DNA from: Escherichia phage AV123
Reading direction: 5' to 3' (one strand)
Sequence record: OR352953.1
Length of the DNA stretch: 64,000 nucleotides
The stretch's first letter is position 1; each line of letters opens with the position of its first letter. Under the pieces are notes generated by a model. It saw nothing but the letters and a program-made list of their open reading frames with translations, did not search any database and was not told the origin of the DNA. This document shows positions 8,981 to 39,764 of the stretch, piece by piece. The position numbers were made by a program, and so were the translations under genes.

Positions 8981-9271
8981 ATGAACATCACACTAGCAAC
9001 TAAGAATATTACAGAAACTTTCGATGGTTTTGGCATTATTATTGCTGTTCATGGGCATAACGAAAAATGGTTAGCCTCTTTTGAAGAGGACAAAGAACGC
9101 AATGTACGTTTGAATGCACCAATCAAAGTTTTACACCAGGTAGGTGAGAATAAGAAACAATGGAGATCATACAAAGAGTGGAACATTACAAACGAATTAA
9201 TACACAAACTTGACAAAGTGCTAAACATGTTCGACAATGCACCAAGCAGTGCAAAACGTGTTTTACTATAA
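8981..9271 (+). CDS. hypothetical protein
   Basis: 96 aa; AGAGG RBS. Confidence 0.55.
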   Translation: MNITLATKNITETFDGFGIIIAVHGHNEKWLASFEEDKERNVRLNAPIKVLHQVGENKKQWRSYKEWNITNELIHKLDKVLNMFDNAPSSAKRVLL

Positions 9272-11217: not shown

Positions 11218-12345
11218 ATGAAATACACGATTTATGGTGATATTGTAAGTGTAAATAAAGATATGGGCGTGGAATCTAACTATCTTCCACCTGGATTCTA
11301 TACTGTTAGTCGTGATCCCCTTGGCAATTACTTTTTAAGCCGTGGTAATCTAACAGGTGTACCGGATGTTCTGTATGGTGAAACAGAAAAACGAGCAAAT
11401 CACGTTATTCGTACATTCCATCGCCGGAGTGCACAAGGTAAAAATACAGGTTTGCTCCTGACAGGCACTAAGGGCAGTGGTAAAACTATGTTAGCCAAAC
11501 TCATTAGTCGTGACCTTGTAGAAGAAGGTATTCCAACTATTATGGTTACTCAAGCCTACAGCGATGCTAATTTCATTGAACTTATTAGCAAGATCACCGA
11601 CAAAGCAGTGATTATTTTTGACGAGTTTGATAAAGTATATGAGAAGAAACAAGATCAAGAAGCACTTCTCACTTTGTTAGATGGTACTGGCAGTGGTAAT
11701 AAACTGTTTATTCTAACTAAAAACAGTGGCTTTATCTCTGAATTCTTTCTAAATCGTCCTAGTCGTGTGTTTTATAATTTTAATTATGATAAAATCTCAC
11801 TAGAAACTATGATTGACTATTTAGATAAAAACCTGGATAACAAAGCACACTTTGATAATTTCCAAAGGCTTTGGGATGTAAGTTTAGAGTTGTCCTTTGA
11901 TGTGATCCAAGGTATAGTAGAAGAACTTAATTTCTACCCTGATTTATCCTTTAAAGAATGCATCTCTATGATGGGCGTTTCTTTGGGTGGTGGTAATAAG
12001 TGGGATATCAGCAGCGTTGTTATTAATGGGAAACTTCAGAAAGTTAGCTGGGTATCTAGTTGGCATAACTTCACACCTGCAATCTTTTTAGGTGGCTCGT
12101 GCACACTAGACGTGTACTTGTCATCTCCAAGTGATGCAGACTCTAAAGAAGCCCTTGCTAATAGCTCTTACGTGGTTTTTGATGATGAAGGAGATGCTCG
12201 AATTCCATTGAATGCGACAAAAATGAAAGCAGATCTTATTACAGGCGGTAAAATCGTTGTGTTTAGTGATGATCCAGAAGATTCTTTCCGTATTGTTCTG
12301 GAACCAACTATCACCAATGGTGCAACTTTGGCAAGCGTGTTTTAA
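11218..12345 (+). CDS. AAA-type ATPase domain protein
   Basis: Walker A GTKGSGKT, Walker B IIFDEFD; 375 aa. Confidence 0.65.
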   Translation: MKYTIYGDIVSVNKDMGVESNYLPPGFYTVSRDPLGNYFLSRGNLTGVPDVLYGETEKRANHVIRTFHRRSAQGKNTGLLLTGTKGSGKTMLAKLISRDLVEEGIPTIMVTQAYSDANFIELISKITDKAVIIFDEFDKVYEKKQDQEALLTLLDGTGSGNKLFILTKNSGFISEFFLNRPSRVFYNFNYDKISLETMIDYLDKNLDNKAHFDNFQRLWDVSLELSFDVIQGIVEELNFYPDLSFKECISMMGVSLGGGNKWDISSVVINGKLQKVSWVSSWHNFTPAIFLGGSCTLDVYLSSPSDADSKEALANSSYVVFDDEGDARIPLNATKMKADLITGGKIVVFSDDPEDSFRIVLEPTITNGATLASVF

Positions 12346-12361
12346 GTAAGCCAGCAAATAA

Positions 12362-12390
12362 AAACCCGCTCCGGCGGGTTTTCTTGTATT
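12362..12390 (+). terminator. rho-independent terminator
   Basis: CCCGCTCCGGCGGG hairpin followed by TTTTCTTG. Confidence 0.6.
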
Positions 12391-12419: not shown

Positions 12420-13409
12420 ATGACAGCACCAAAATCATGGGAACAATATAAAGAAGAGTGTATACCAATAGCAGAGAGTAAGCAAATCCAAATCTTAGGA
12501 TGGACGGGACAATGGAAAGGGGTCCACACAAAACTTGATTTGTTGTGCCATTGTGGTTATAAATGGGATACTACAAGTATTAACAGTTTTAAATGTGGTA
12601 GCGGTTGTCCACAATGTAGGAGGAAGAATATAAGGAAGTCACAAACAATGTCCGACGATCAACATATTGCAGATTTCTTTTCTACAGGGGAATTTAAGGA
12701 AGGCACTATCTTCACTAACACAGGAACACGGGGTAAAGGATGTAGGAATATTATCTGGATGGTTGAATGTCCTGTTTGCTCTCATGATGAATATGTTCAA
12801 GCAGGTGTTTGTGATGGTAAATTTTACTCTGAAGGAGATAACCTTAAACGAGGGTATATTCCGTGTCGTTGTGGGAACTATCGGTATACAGAAGACCAGA
12901 TCACCTATAGGGTAAAAAAGGAAGTAGAAGGGAAAGGGTATGTCTGGGTAGATTGGATTACCAAACCCTCTTCTATAGGTAAGTTTAAATATCTTTGTCT
13001 TGTGCATGGTGAGCAGATAGGGAGTGCTAATAATTTATTAAGCCTCGGTCGAGGTTGTCCTATGTGTGCTGGTCATAGTCAGCAGCAGTTATATATTAAT
13101 ATTGTTAAGGATGATAATATTATAGTTGCTCTTAAGTTTGGTATAGCTAAAGATAGTGATAGGCGATTAAACATTCAAAATAGCCGTAATCTGTTTTTTA
13201 TGGAACGTATTTGTTTATATGATTTTAGCACAGTGAAACAGTGTAAGGCTGCTGAAAGAGCTATAAAGAAAAAATTAAAAACTGGTATTTTAACAGCAAG
13301 AGAGTTGAAAGACGGTCATACAGAAACAGTAAGTGTTTCTGATTTGGAAAATCTTCAAAAAATTATTACACAATATGGTGGCAAGTTAGTATACAATAAG
13401 GAGGTGTAA
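12420..13409 (+). CDS. zinc-ribbon repeat protein with C-terminal T5orf172/GIY-YIG-like domain
   Basis: four C..C pairs; C-terminal YINIV..ALKFGIAKDSDRRL fits T5orf172 pattern. Confidence 0.45.
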   Translation: MTAPKSWEQYKEECIPIAESKQIQILGWTGQWKGVHTKLDLLCHCGYKWDTTSINSFKCGSGCPQCRRKNIRKSQTMSDDQHIADFFSTGEFKEGTIFTNTGTRGKGCRNIIWMVECPVCSHDEYVQAGVCDGKFYSEGDNLKRGYIPCRCGNYRYTEDQITYRVKKEVEGKGYVWVDWITKPSSIGKFKYLCLVHGEQIGSANNLLSLGRGCPMCAGHSQQQLYINIVKDDNIIVALKFGIAKDSDRRLNIQNSRNLFFMERICLYDFSTVKQCKAAERAIKKKLKTGILTARELKDGHTETVSVSDLENLQKIITQYGGKLVYNKEV

Positions 13410-13961
13410 ATGCGGATTACTGATAAGTATGTGTTCTTCTTTTCAGCAAAAGATGAATTTAGCAACTGGTATCTATCATCTTTTATTGAACCTTTAGCAC
13501 CCAAGTATAATAATTCTATTACAAGTTCTGTTGAATTTACTTGTGTGGAACAATATATGATGTGGAGAAAAGCATGTTTGTTTTATGATTACAGTATTGC
13601 ATCTTCTATTTTAACCGGAGATCTAAGATATACAGGAGAAAAAGAACAAGCATATTATAAGCGACTAGGCAGATTAGTTAAAGATTATGATGAAGATACC
13701 TGGACTTCTTTACGGGAGAAGATTGTCAAACGTGGTTTGTATCTTAAATACACACAAAATGAAGATCTCAAAAATAAACTTATAACCTACGCAGATAAGG
13801 AGTTCGTAGAGGCAAGCCCTTATGATTCTATTTATGGTATCAAAATGGGGATGTGGGATCGTGACGTGGAAAATAAGGACTGTTGGAAAGGACAAAATCT
13901 TTTAGGAAAATGGCATACAGACCTTGCTGTTTATCTAAAAGCACAATCTGATATTTCCTGA
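13410..13961 (+). CDS. NADAR (YbiA-like) domain protein
   Basis: 183 aa; FF.S..EFSNW, VEQYMMW.KA, SPYDSIYGIKMG, NLLGK motifs recalled from NADAR/DUF1768. Confidence 0.6.
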   Translation: MRITDKYVFFFSAKDEFSNWYLSSFIEPLAPKYNNSITSSVEFTCVEQYMMWRKACLFYDYSIASSILTGDLRYTGEKEQAYYKRLGRLVKDYDEDTWTSLREKIVKRGLYLKYTQNEDLKNKLITYADKEFVEASPYDSIYGIKMGMWDRDVENKDCWKGQNLLGKWHTDLAVYLKAQSDIS

Positions 13962-14175
13962 TATTTTGAAAATTTTTATTTTTATAAAAAGGGGTGTGGG
14001 TTTCATGTACGGAAATTCACCCTCTGAATAATATATTCAGAGTAAATATTATTTTGTACTCTGTTAATAAATTATTTAATTTGTTTGTTGGATTATGATA
14101 TCTGGTTTTTAAAAGGCATACTATCTCTTAACTACTATTTATAACAGAACAGTAAAATCATTTTTATAAAAAGGA

Positions 14176-14382
14176 CAAAATTATTTAAAGTTTTTACAGA
14201 TTTTTGGATACAAATTTTGAAAATGAAAAGTTCAAGTTTGGTCAAAATTATTTAAAGTTTTTGTATGTATTTCTATCCAGATTTTGAAAATGAAAACTTC
14301 AATTTTTTAAAAATTCCCCAGTTTATTTAAAGTTTTTTTGCCTTTTTCCGTAGAAAAATCAAAAATGAAAAGTTCAATTTCG
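14176..14382. repeat. three tandem ~65 bp AT-rich direct repeats
   Basis: units at 14176, 14243, 14320 sharing ATTTAAAGTTTTT...ATTTTGAAAATGAAAAGTTCAA. Confidence 0.7.
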
Positions 14383-14400
14383 TGTTTTTATAGGTGTGTT

Positions 14401-14513
14401 AATGAGAATCATTTTCGTTTGTAAATGAGAATCATTATCATTTAACTATGTAAGTGATAATCATTCTCACTAAGAGAATGAGAATCATTAGCAAATGAGA
14501 ATTTTTCTCATTT
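14401..14513. promoter_or_regulatory. cluster of five Fur-box-like palindromes (ATGAGAAT-C-ATTCTCAT family)
   Basis: copies at 14401, 14424, 14454, 14474, 14493; one symmetric substitution from E. coli Fur core TGATAATCATTATCA. Confidence 0.5.
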
Positions 14514-14774
14514 AGAGAATAACGCGCAGGGGTGGTGTTTGTCTCGCGCTCCCGTGTCCCCTCGCCATACAATAAGAATAGCATAACCAACAACAAAAGC
14601 AAGCGATTATTTTTATCTTTACATTTCTTTACAAATTTATTTTAGACGAGCTACCAGCGATCAACCTTCCAACCAGTGCCCCCTGGTATGTTAGCCCCGC
14701 CTTTACGCCGTGGGGATGGCGCTTCCTCTTCTGTATGTAAAACAGTATAAGCCCGATCCCTGGGCTTGTCAAGA

Positions 14775-15041
14775 TTATTTTTTGTTTTCTTGCCAGGATA
14801 GGACACCTAACCAAAAATACATGTCGCCCCGCGCCCCTGGCGGGATCTTGCTTTCCCCGCCGCCACTGCAAGCCCATAGATAACCATTTGCGAACGTATC
14901 AAAATGATCTATTTCTTCCACCTTATGATCGCCCAGGTTGAGAACGGTTTCAACCTTTAAGCCCGTTGCGCTTGCTACCTGGTGCACCGTGCCGCCTTGC
15001 CAGCCTAATGAGTGCATGAGGTGTGAAGTAGTATTTGTCAT
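14775..15041 (-). CDS. hypothetical protein in GC-rich island
   Basis: 88 aa; ATG 15039-15041 with AAAGGG RBS; GC-rich unlike surroundings; overlaps a second ORF (14629-14877) in another frame. Confidence 0.35.
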   Translation of the reverse strand: MTNTTSHLMHSLGWQGGTVHQVASATGLKVETVLNLGDHKVEEIDHFDTFANGYLWACSGGGESKIPPGARGDMYFWLGVLSWQENKK

Positions 15042-25948: not shown

Positions 25949-26241
25949 TAATGTTTAGAACATTGGCTATAATATAAGCTATCCAATAATAAACATGGTG
26001 AATAATGACACTGATGATCATAATGCGCCACCCTCCAGGGGGCGCTATGTGAACACAAAGAAATCTTTCTTGTCAAGAAAAATATCACCATTATTGCGCA
26101 AAATTATTTATATCTGAATAGATGATTTTTCATACTATTGCCCCCTTGATTATTACCATTTGTTGAGCCTACTTTCTTAAAAGCGCAATAAAATAGAATT
26201 ATATTGATTTTTAGTCGGTTTTATAGTACAGAAAGTATGCA

Positions 26242-26456
26242 AATGATAATCATTATCAGCTATCTTCCACGGGTGGCACTATTTCACACCAGATCATTTC
26301 ATTTGGCAAGGTGTATATAGATGTTTAGACTTGCCAAGCCATTGATTTCCTTAGAATTTATCTGTTTTGTTGTGAGTAGTACCTTTCTTGCTTAGAAAAT
26401 AATCAAAAGTCTTATAAGTCATTGAATGATAATACAAATGATAATTATTCTCATTG
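26242..26456. promoter_or_regulatory. Fur-box-like sites
   Basis: AATGATAATCATTATC at 26242 (15/15 to Fur core) and GAATGATAAT..ATGATAATTATTCTCATTG at 26424. Confidence 0.5.
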
Positions 26457-38951: not shown

Positions 38952-39764
38952 TTACTTAGTCAAATGATCTTCTATCATTTTTATGAAAGCAGGATTGCTA
39001 AAAGCATCTGCTGCCTTTTCTCTATAAACAAAGACTCCTCTATCTTCGTAAAGAAGAGTTTCTTCGTAATTAATTCCTGGGTTAACAACAATCATTTTTG
39101 TACCCATAGTAAGTGCAGGGAATAATTCCCAATTAAAATTGATAACTTGGTTTGAACATCCTACTACAACAACCAAATCTTGCATGGTCAAAGTATCAAA
39201 CAAGTGAGCCATATCTGCATACAAAGGTGCAGCCTCACCAAAAAATACAACATTAGGCTTCACCCAGTTATAATCATCTATGTTTATACTATTGTAACCA
39301 ATGTCTACCAGTGTTTTGTAATCTCCAGGATGCATACGGTAAACTACTTCAGGGAGATACCCGTGCACGTGAATAACAGAATCCCTGTCCACACCTGCTC
39401 GCTCTAGTAGATCATCGACGTTTGTTGTCAAGTTTACTACTTGGTTAGGATATTCCTTAAACCACTTTGCTATTTGAATATGTGCAGCATTAGGTTGTAC
39501 ATCTTTAAGCTCAACACGTCTTTTGTTATAAAATTCGTGTGTTTTGGCATATAAGTCCATACCGTTCTCGTCTACACCACCGACCACTGGAAGATCTGGA
39601 GATGTTCTCACACGATAACCTGCTTGGAAAGCTCCAATATCGCAGACCTCTTCTAAGTCATATTCTTCCCATAAGGCACGACCACTATCTGTGTCTGTTC
39701 GGAACGTTCGAATCCCACTGTCTGCACTTAAACCTGCGCCACTAACAAAAATTACTCTTCGCAT
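38952..39764 (-). CDS. Sir2-family NAD-dependent deacylase/ADP-ribosyltransferase-like protein
   Basis: GAGLSADSGIRTFR, TTNVDDL, HVHG, VVVVGCS sirtuin motifs; 270 aa. Confidence 0.7.
   Translation of the reverse strand: MRRVIFVSGAGLSADSGIRTFRTDTDSGRALWEEYDLEEVCDIGAFQAGYRVRTSPDLPVVGGVDENGMDLYAKTHEFYNKRRVELKDVQPNAAHIQIAKWFKEYPNQVVNLTTNVDDLLERAGVDRDSVIHVHGYLPEVVYRMHPGDYKTLVDIGYNSINIDDYNWVKPNVVFFGEAAPLYADMAHLFDTLTMQDLVVVVGCSNQVINFNWELFPALTMGTKMIVVNPGINYEETLLYEDRGVFVYREKAADAFSNPAFIKMIEDHLTK

Follow-up and report, generated by a model that had tools for sequence, protein, structure and literature searches.

A gene at 13410..13961 on the + strand of Escherichia phage AV123 encodes a clear NADAR-domain protein of 183 amino acids (aa) that is very likely the Justusliebigvirus (phi92-like) orthologue of AdfN^Bas60, a stand-alone NADAR-fold ADP-ribosylglycohydrolase predicted to act as a guanine-N2 ADP-ribosyl-DNA glycohydrolase that reverses DarT1 lesions. 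The gene lies in a 64,000-nucleotide (nt) stretch of sequence record OR352953.1 that was analysed as a whole (the window). Its product is identical at 181 of 183 positions to bas60_0111 (QXV83846.1) and, to the same extent, to bas61_0107 (QXV78236.1), where the locus tags denote phages PaulScherrer (Bas60) and EmilieFrey (Bas61); a third BASEL phage of this AdfN type is JohannJBalmer (Bas62). The substitutions T126A and A178T separate the protein from its Bas60 counterpart, and S62N and T126A from that of Bas61. All of these positions lie outside the invariant and near-invariant columns of an alignment (A1) of 40 sequences, which comprises the window protein and 39 homologues with 36-60% identity drawn from a collection of 5.8 billion proteins. 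The window and Bas60 genes also agree in length, phage genus and genomic slot, in which an ATPase gene, a CapR/T5orf172 gene, the NADAR gene and an AT-rich repeat region follow one another. Apart from the two substitutions, they differ in the adjoining endonuclease, which is 329 aa in the window but 467 aa in Bas60.

AdfN^Bas60 (AdfN for anti-DarT factor NADAR) received its name from Johannesman et al. (Nat Commun 2025, PMC11825919), who searched the BASEL collection and named Bas60, Bas61 and Bas62. In that study, AdfN^Bas60 neutralised DarT1 toxicity in uninfected E. coli (their Fig. 5), and on DarTG1 hosts its ectopic expression let phages RB69, T5 and Bas25 plaque at full titre again; DarTG2, a thymidine modifier, was not relieved. 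The same work groups AdfN^Bas60 with bacterial NADARs that belong to neither the YbiA nor the DarG1 type, and infers that it was acquired independently of T4 AdfN. Because the window gene is an orthologue of this published, experimentally characterised anti-DarTG1 factor, its interpretation is already known; its function is published knowledge and provides no new lead. A sequence-only reading of this DNA (the earlier note) had proposed a phage NADAR that reverses DarT-type guanine ADP-ribosylation as a counter-defence measure, and this proposal is supported by the near-identity to AdfN^Bas60 together with the published experiments.

Profile searches placed the NADAR domain at residues 13-168 of 183. 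Pfam PF08719 (NADAR) matched with E = 5.8e-36 over profile positions 9-154 of 163, its 124.6 bits exceeding the gathering threshold of 35.1, and the protein also matched phrog_1017, a PHROG of unknown function (E = 1.3e-49). When PDB sequences were searched with phmmer, the top match (E = 7e-12) was the NADAR of Phytophthora nicotianae (PnNADAR, 8BAU); YbiA of E. coli (2B3W) was marginal at E = 0.11. Chance cannot account for matches of this strength to NADAR profiles. The model for the DS32_2 NADAR family anti-phage protein (NCBIfam NF053876) reached 26 bits, below its cut-off of 240. PADLOC returned a single match, to the NADAR component of the candidate system PDC-M42, which was rejected as a functional clue as it reflects the shared domain only.

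An AlphaFold2 model, for which A1 served as the input, had a mean predicted local distance difference test (pLDDT) score of 97.2 and a predicted template modelling (pTM) score of 0.91. The predicted fold is the alpha+beta arrangement of NADAR proteins, with core helices and small beta-hairpins on the flanks. Foldseek comparison of this model with the PDB yielded two significant matches, all others having E > 3: PnNADAR with ADP-ribose (8BAU; E = 9.7e-10, template modelling (TM) score 0.77, 27% identity) and YbiA (2B3W; E = 1.3e-6, TM score 0.69-0.74). Profile and structure comparison had been set beforehand as a possible refutation of the NADAR assignment, and both found the NADAR fold.

The ADP-ribose-binding residues known from PnNADAR were then located in the window protein. 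In PnNADAR, K75 and R79 shield the pyrophosphate, E43 and E125 bond to the distal ribose, and the essential K50 is the counterpart of K95 in the E. coli C7 enzyme (Schuller et al. 2023, PMC11543638). The phmmer alignment, corrected for two extra N-terminal residues in the 8BAU chain, maps E43, K50, K75, R79 and E125 to E47, K54, K84, R88 and E134 of the window protein. Four of these residues (E47, K54, K84 and E134) are invariant in A1, and R88 is kept in at least 90% of the sequences. The codons from E47 to K54 (motif VEQYMMWRK) occupy 13548..13571 on the + strand and correspond to E43/K50 of PnNADAR and E36/K43 of T4 AdfN, which contact the distal ribose and phosphate (PMC11543638, PMC11825919). 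Those from K84 to R88 (KRLGR; 13659..13673, + strand) correspond to the pyrophosphate-shielding K75/R79 pair, and the E134 codon (FVEAS; 13809..13811, + strand) to E125. The claim in the earlier note that the open reading frame (ORF) carries motifs of NADAR/YbiA-type enzymes therefore holds, given the Pfam score and the retention of all five ADP-ribose-binding or catalytic residues. PnNADAR, a classical stand-alone NADAR from a eukaryote that shares these five contacts, is the closest solved structure. A1 further showed that the phage clade has two insertions (at around residues 28-40 and 71-80) that are absent from more distant family members.

The third acidic position distinguishes NADAR groups: members of the YbiA sub-family carry Glu there, those of the BC4488 sub-family and the NADARs that accompany DarT1 carry Asp, and phage NADARs of the T4 type carry His (PMC11543638). 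The Glu of the window protein, E134, is thus the classical/YbiA state. The first characterised phage anti-DarTG1 NADAR, AdfN^T4 (T4 gp30.3), is likewise an orphan phage NADAR. It strips ADP-ribose from DarT1-modified DNA, as shown in vitro, was not found to associate with DarT1, and requires both E36 and K43 for full activity (PMC11825919). However, the T4 clade has His where the window protein has E134, and AdfN^T4 is fully effective only during infection by T-even phages; unlike AdfN^Bas60, it fails to neutralise DarT1 when no phage infects the cell (PMC11825919). BLASTP detected no similarity between the window protein and T4 gp30.3 (E = 1.7), and hhalign gave a weak alignment (probability 18%) that superposed VEQYMMWRK, E47 included, on LEGFLQGCK, the T4 motif with E36 and K43. 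Membership of the T4-type clade was rejected in view of E134 and of these BLASTP and hhalign values.

DarG1, the DarTG1 antitoxin known from E. coli C7 and Geobacter lovleyi, has the same fold and reverses guanine-N2 ADP-ribosylation, but its gene adjoins that of DarT1, the protein is extended at its N-terminus, and the third catalytic position is Asp (D171 in the E. coli C7 enzyme) (PMC11543638). By contrast, no DarT gene neighbours that of the window protein, which lacks such an extension (its domain begins at residue 13) and has Glu at this position. No ADP-ribosyltransferase (ART) or DarT domain was found in the genes flanking the NADAR gene, which is an orphan antitoxin-like gene because no DarT-like gene adjoins it.

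The following mechanism is proposed. On infection of a DarTG1 host, the DarT1 toxin would ADP-ribosylate the N2 of guanine in phage DNA and so block replication. The phage enzyme would bind the ADP-ribose, with K54, K84 and R88 on the pyrophosphate and E47 and E134 at the distal ribose, and would cut the N-glycosidic bond between ribose and guanine, leaving unmodified DNA on which replication could resume. The target would be the lesion and not the toxin, and the enzyme should therefore counter any guanine-specific DNA ADP-ribosyltransferase, but not the thymidine-modifying DarT2. The present analysis computed the domain, the fold, the conserved active-site residues, the 99% identity to a tested protein and the conserved genomic position; we infer the catalytic chemistry of the Bas60-type clade from homology to PnNADAR, DarG1 and T4 AdfN and from the conserved active site. 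The phage that carries the gene would presumably need it.

Several points weigh against this assignment or narrow its reach. The equation with AdfN^Bas60 is based on the text of the paper, which names Bas60, Bas61 and Bas62, on the locus tags, and on the single NADAR-matching place in each record. For this clade the published evidence consulted comes from ectopic expression, and the portions of the literature available to us contained no case in which deletion of the gene sensitised Bas60-type phages to DarTG1. Nor did the accessible parts of PMC11825919 contain an in vitro assay or a catalytic mutant of AdfN^Bas60 itself; both exist there for T4 AdfN, the protein without BLASTP-detectable similarity to that of the window. 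The window protein also exceeds the cut-off of TIGR02464 (NCBIfam, riboflavin biosynthesis intermediates N-glycosidase), with 109.5 bits against 73.7. In addition, cytidine bearing ADP-ribose (C-ADPr) and, in RNA, guanosine with this adduct (RNA G-ADPr) are further substrates of classical NADARs, and DarT1 lesions may be neither the sole nor the main natural substrate.

An extension of the anti-DarT1 assignment, which we regard as unlikely but worth stating, is that Bas60-type AdfN is a broad-spectrum nucleic-acid de-ADP-ribosylase that also acts on C-ADPr and RNA G-ADPr and guards against undescribed ADP-ribosylating defences or toxins other than DarT1. It is put forward because Bas60-type AdfN falls in the classical Glu-type branch, some members of which remove these two adducts. 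If it were true, protection would extend to phi92-like phages and to the carriers of relatives, which are numerous phage records (Staphylococcus, Listeria, Enterococcus, Bacillus) as well as the jumbo-phage-like contigs; the two insertions specific to the clade might then tune substrate choice.

Among the alternatives to DNA repair, the main natural role could instead be the degradation of soluble ADP-ribose-derived molecules, such as immune signals or the by-products left by RNA repair or the turnover of NAD+, as Iyer et al. (2022, PMC9503650) proposed for most phage NADARs. In agreement with this, homologues with ~40% identity on 350-455 kb jumbo-phage-like contigs adjoin NAD+ salvage genes, and the window itself encodes a SIR2-family (NAD+-dependent, NAD+-consuming) protein of 270 aa at 38952-39764 on the - strand (Pfam PF02146, E = 1.3e-22; annotated as 'sirtuin family protein' in Bas61). 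However, the soluble-substrate hypothesis predates the experimental work, in which a 99%-identical protein countered a DNA-modifying toxin in vivo. The NADAR gene of this phage is not adjacent to NAD+ salvage genes, and a soluble substrate has been demonstrated for no NADAR of the Bas60-type clade. We consider such a main role very improbable; degradation of soluble signals may be an extra activity, though it is not what the experiments show.

The TIGR02464 score bears on a different alternative, in which the protein is a YbiA-like N-glycosidase that acts on reactive intermediates of riboflavin biosynthesis and the gene serves in auxiliary metabolism or damage control. GenBank labels in Bas60, Bas61, Bas62 and KMB37 ('putative YbiA-like N-glycosidase', 'GTP cyclohydrolase II') agree with this, and YbiA shares with the window protein the NADAR fold, a score above the TIGR02464 cut-off and the Glu at the position of E134, the state of the YbiA sub-family (PMC11543638). 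TIGR02464 is nevertheless a domain-level model that classical NADARs can probably also pass, and by pairwise comparison the window protein is far nearer to the classical PnNADAR than to YbiA. E. coli YbiA gives no protection from DarT1 in vivo (PMC11125620), whereas AdfN^Bas60 neutralises DarT1 in cells and groups outside the YbiA type. The genomic context also differs from that of YbiA: no riboflavin genes were found in the ~57 kb of annotated orthologous region inspected, and neither this region nor the immediate neighbourhood contained a fusion or linkage to RibA or RibD or the LexA-controlled dinG-ybiB context defined in PMC11125620. A riboflavin-related function is accordingly most improbable. 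Hardly any weight falls on a non-catalytic inhibitor or sponge that binds ADP-ribose to blunt an NAD+-dependent defence effector: another phage NADAR, which counters Retron-Eco1 (2024), is described as non-enzymatic in the part of PMC11825919 available to us, but the same part states that AdfNs, unlike the Retron-Eco1 inhibitor, need enzymatic activity, the catalytic residues are kept across the family in A1, which suggests selection for catalysis, and T4 AdfN does not bind DarT1 and is fully active only with E36 and K43 in place.

The ORF of the adfN-type gene could be read directly from the sequence as placed by the earlier note, with an ATG start codon at 13410, a TGA stop codon at 13959-13961 and 183 codons on the + strand. 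A Shine-Dalgarno sequence (GGAGG, 13400..13404, + strand), also read directly, lies 5 nt before the ATG and within the 3' end of the upstream gene, whose TAA stop codon (13407-13409) immediately precedes the NADAR start. Again as the earlier note had it, the NADAR gene closes a block of + strand genes; this block opens at 8981. On its 3' side follow ~800 nt of AT-rich, repeat-bearing and ORF-poor DNA and then an ORF on the - strand (14775-15041), and + strand genes start again at ~15214. The gene is surrounded by a long series of small genes of unknown function, a setting that has been described for early-expressed phage NADARs (Iyer et al. 2022, PMC9503650), and we infer that it is expressed early in infection.

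The two upstream neighbours were correctly named in the earlier note as an AAA ATPase (375 aa; 11218-12345, + strand) and a Zn-ribbon/T5orf172 protein (329 aa; 12420..13409, + strand), but its hint that they matter for the NADAR gene was not upheld. The T5orf172 gene has the appearance of a mobile homing endonuclease. Its product matches Pfam CapR in three stretches (89.4 bits), has a C-terminal T5orf172 match (21.5 bits) and hits phrog_681 ('endonuclease'). Barth et al. (2023, PMC10448857) describe proteins that combine repeated CapR DNA-binding domains with a GIY-YIG-related T5orf172 nuclease, and regard them as putative homing endonucleases whose domains are modular and recombine. The gene is 80% identical to its Bas60 counterpart, compared with 99% for the adjoining NADAR gene and ~99% for the flanking genes, and the Bas60 protein has ~138 extra N-terminal residues with further CapR repeats. 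By annotated coordinates, the protein is 325 aa in Bas61, 390 aa in Paula and 467 aa in Bas60; close relatives differ in length as CapR repeats are gained or lost. Phapecoctavirus tuntematon has a 332-aa gene at the endonuclease position, and two additional small genes come between it and the NADAR gene. Because of its architecture, its divergence relative to its flanks, its length variation and this separation in Phapecoctavirus, the CapR/T5orf172 gene is probably a selfish element and not a functional partner of the NADAR protein, although the two genes are probably co-transcribed. A functional link between them was rejected on these grounds (homing-endonuclease architecture, variability against the flanks and the intervening Phapecoctavirus genes).

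A link between the NADAR protein and the AAA ATPase was also rejected, owing to a terminator between the ATPase gene and the endonuclease-NADAR pair. This element is a strong GC hairpin of the intrinsic-terminator-like kind, flanked on each side by A/T tracts (12361..12382, + strand; -16.9 kcal/mol, z = -2.8), and the annotation of phage Paula places terminators here on both strands. A sigma-70 scan found no convincing promoter between the terminator end at 12382 and the start codon at 12420, and promoter-like matches in the region were no commoner than in shuffled sequences. A second stable hairpin (13990..14025, + strand) begins ~30 nt past the NADAR stop codon, where the fold of 13962-14070 has an energy of -24.8 kcal/mol (z = -3.3). 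It has no classical T-run and is absent from the output of the terminator scan, and may mark the 3' end of the transcript or stabilise it.

The spacer on the 3' side of the NADAR gene has features of its own. Its GC content is 21-26%, and it contains three tandem-like direct repeats of ~70-79 nt at 14160-14380 that are 71-73% identical and share the core AAATTATTTAAAGTTTTT...TTTTGAAAATGAAAAGTTCAA. The records of phages muut, inny and tuntematon label this stretch just 'repeat_region'; it may be an array of promoters or an origin. Scanning the entire window against Rfam (gathering threshold) and for tRNA genes gave no match, and an RNA gene was rejected as the explanation of the NADAR locus or of the downstream repeats. 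The same spacer carries a cluster of palindromic motifs of the AATGAGAATCATT type at 14381-14514. The E. coli Fur-box consensus is GATAATGATAATCATTATC, and three motifs of the cluster fit it with at most three mismatches. A further Fur-box-like site at 26239-26257 has two mismatches. In total, the window holds five Fur-box-like matches (the palindromic 26239-26257 site being counted on both strands), against 0.09 in shuffled sequences. Bas60, Bas61 and Paula all keep the cluster, a version of it with variant boxes occurs in Phapecoctavirus tuntematon, and a literature search found no report of it. It may represent an input of host Fur (iron) to phage transcription, sites for a phage regulator or a replication origin.

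Beyond this cluster lies a GC-rich island (14520-15041; 43-53% GC against ~35% around it). The conserved 88-aa ORF on the - strand (14775-15041), for which there was no Pfam match, falls inside the island. A near-consensus sigma-70 promoter on the - strand (14772-14744; TTGACA, a 17-nt spacer and TATACT, 11/12) is directed at the Fur-box-like cluster. The SIR2-family gene, ~25 kb from the NADAR gene, is a second NAD+/ADP-ribose-related gene of this phage.

Around the NADAR gene, a 4-kb stretch shares 98.7% identity with Escherichia phages SD2 and VEcB, and 97% with BASEL phage Bas61; these phages, like that of the window, belong to Justusliebigvirus in the subfamily Stephanstirmvirinae. A tblastn search with the NADAR protein found homologues in 716 of 50,697 phage records. 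The most similar group consists of 55 records at 96.7-100% identity, nearly all from phi92-like phages, followed by Phapecoctavirus and Klebsiella phages at 57-64% and by many Staphylococcus, Listeria, Enterococcus, Bacillus, Erwinia and Pectobacterium phage records at ~35-45%. The order of ATPase, endonuclease, NADAR gene and repeat region is kept in the four phi92-like relatives inspected and in the sister genus Phapecoctavirus. Homologues with ~40% identity were also seen on metagenomic contigs of 350-455 kb that resemble jumbo phages in gene content. At these loci (L007, 3026-4477; L009 and its 354-kb parent contig), the homologues adjoin genes of the NAD+ salvage type, for a CTP_transf_like adenylyltransferase, a phosphoribosyltransferase and NAPRTase/NAMPT, and GIY-YIG endonuclease genes flank the L007 copy.

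The naming of the orthologue in GenBank is inconsistent. Most records call it 'hypothetical protein', while others have 'putative YbiA-like N-glycosidase', 'NADAR family protein', 'GTP cyclohydrolase II' or 'DNA methyltransferase'. The label 'GTP cyclohydrolase II' occurs in vB-Eco-KMB37 and Shigella phage SF1-1, and 'DNA methyltransferase' in phage Eryne; both are probably errors of annotation transfer. The reading of this DNA from sequence alone had picked a real anti-defence gene, and the gene in phi92-like genomes can be called adfN (anti-DarTG1 NADAR), an annotation of use when the host range of therapeutic phi92-like phages is predicted for E. coli that carry DarTG1.

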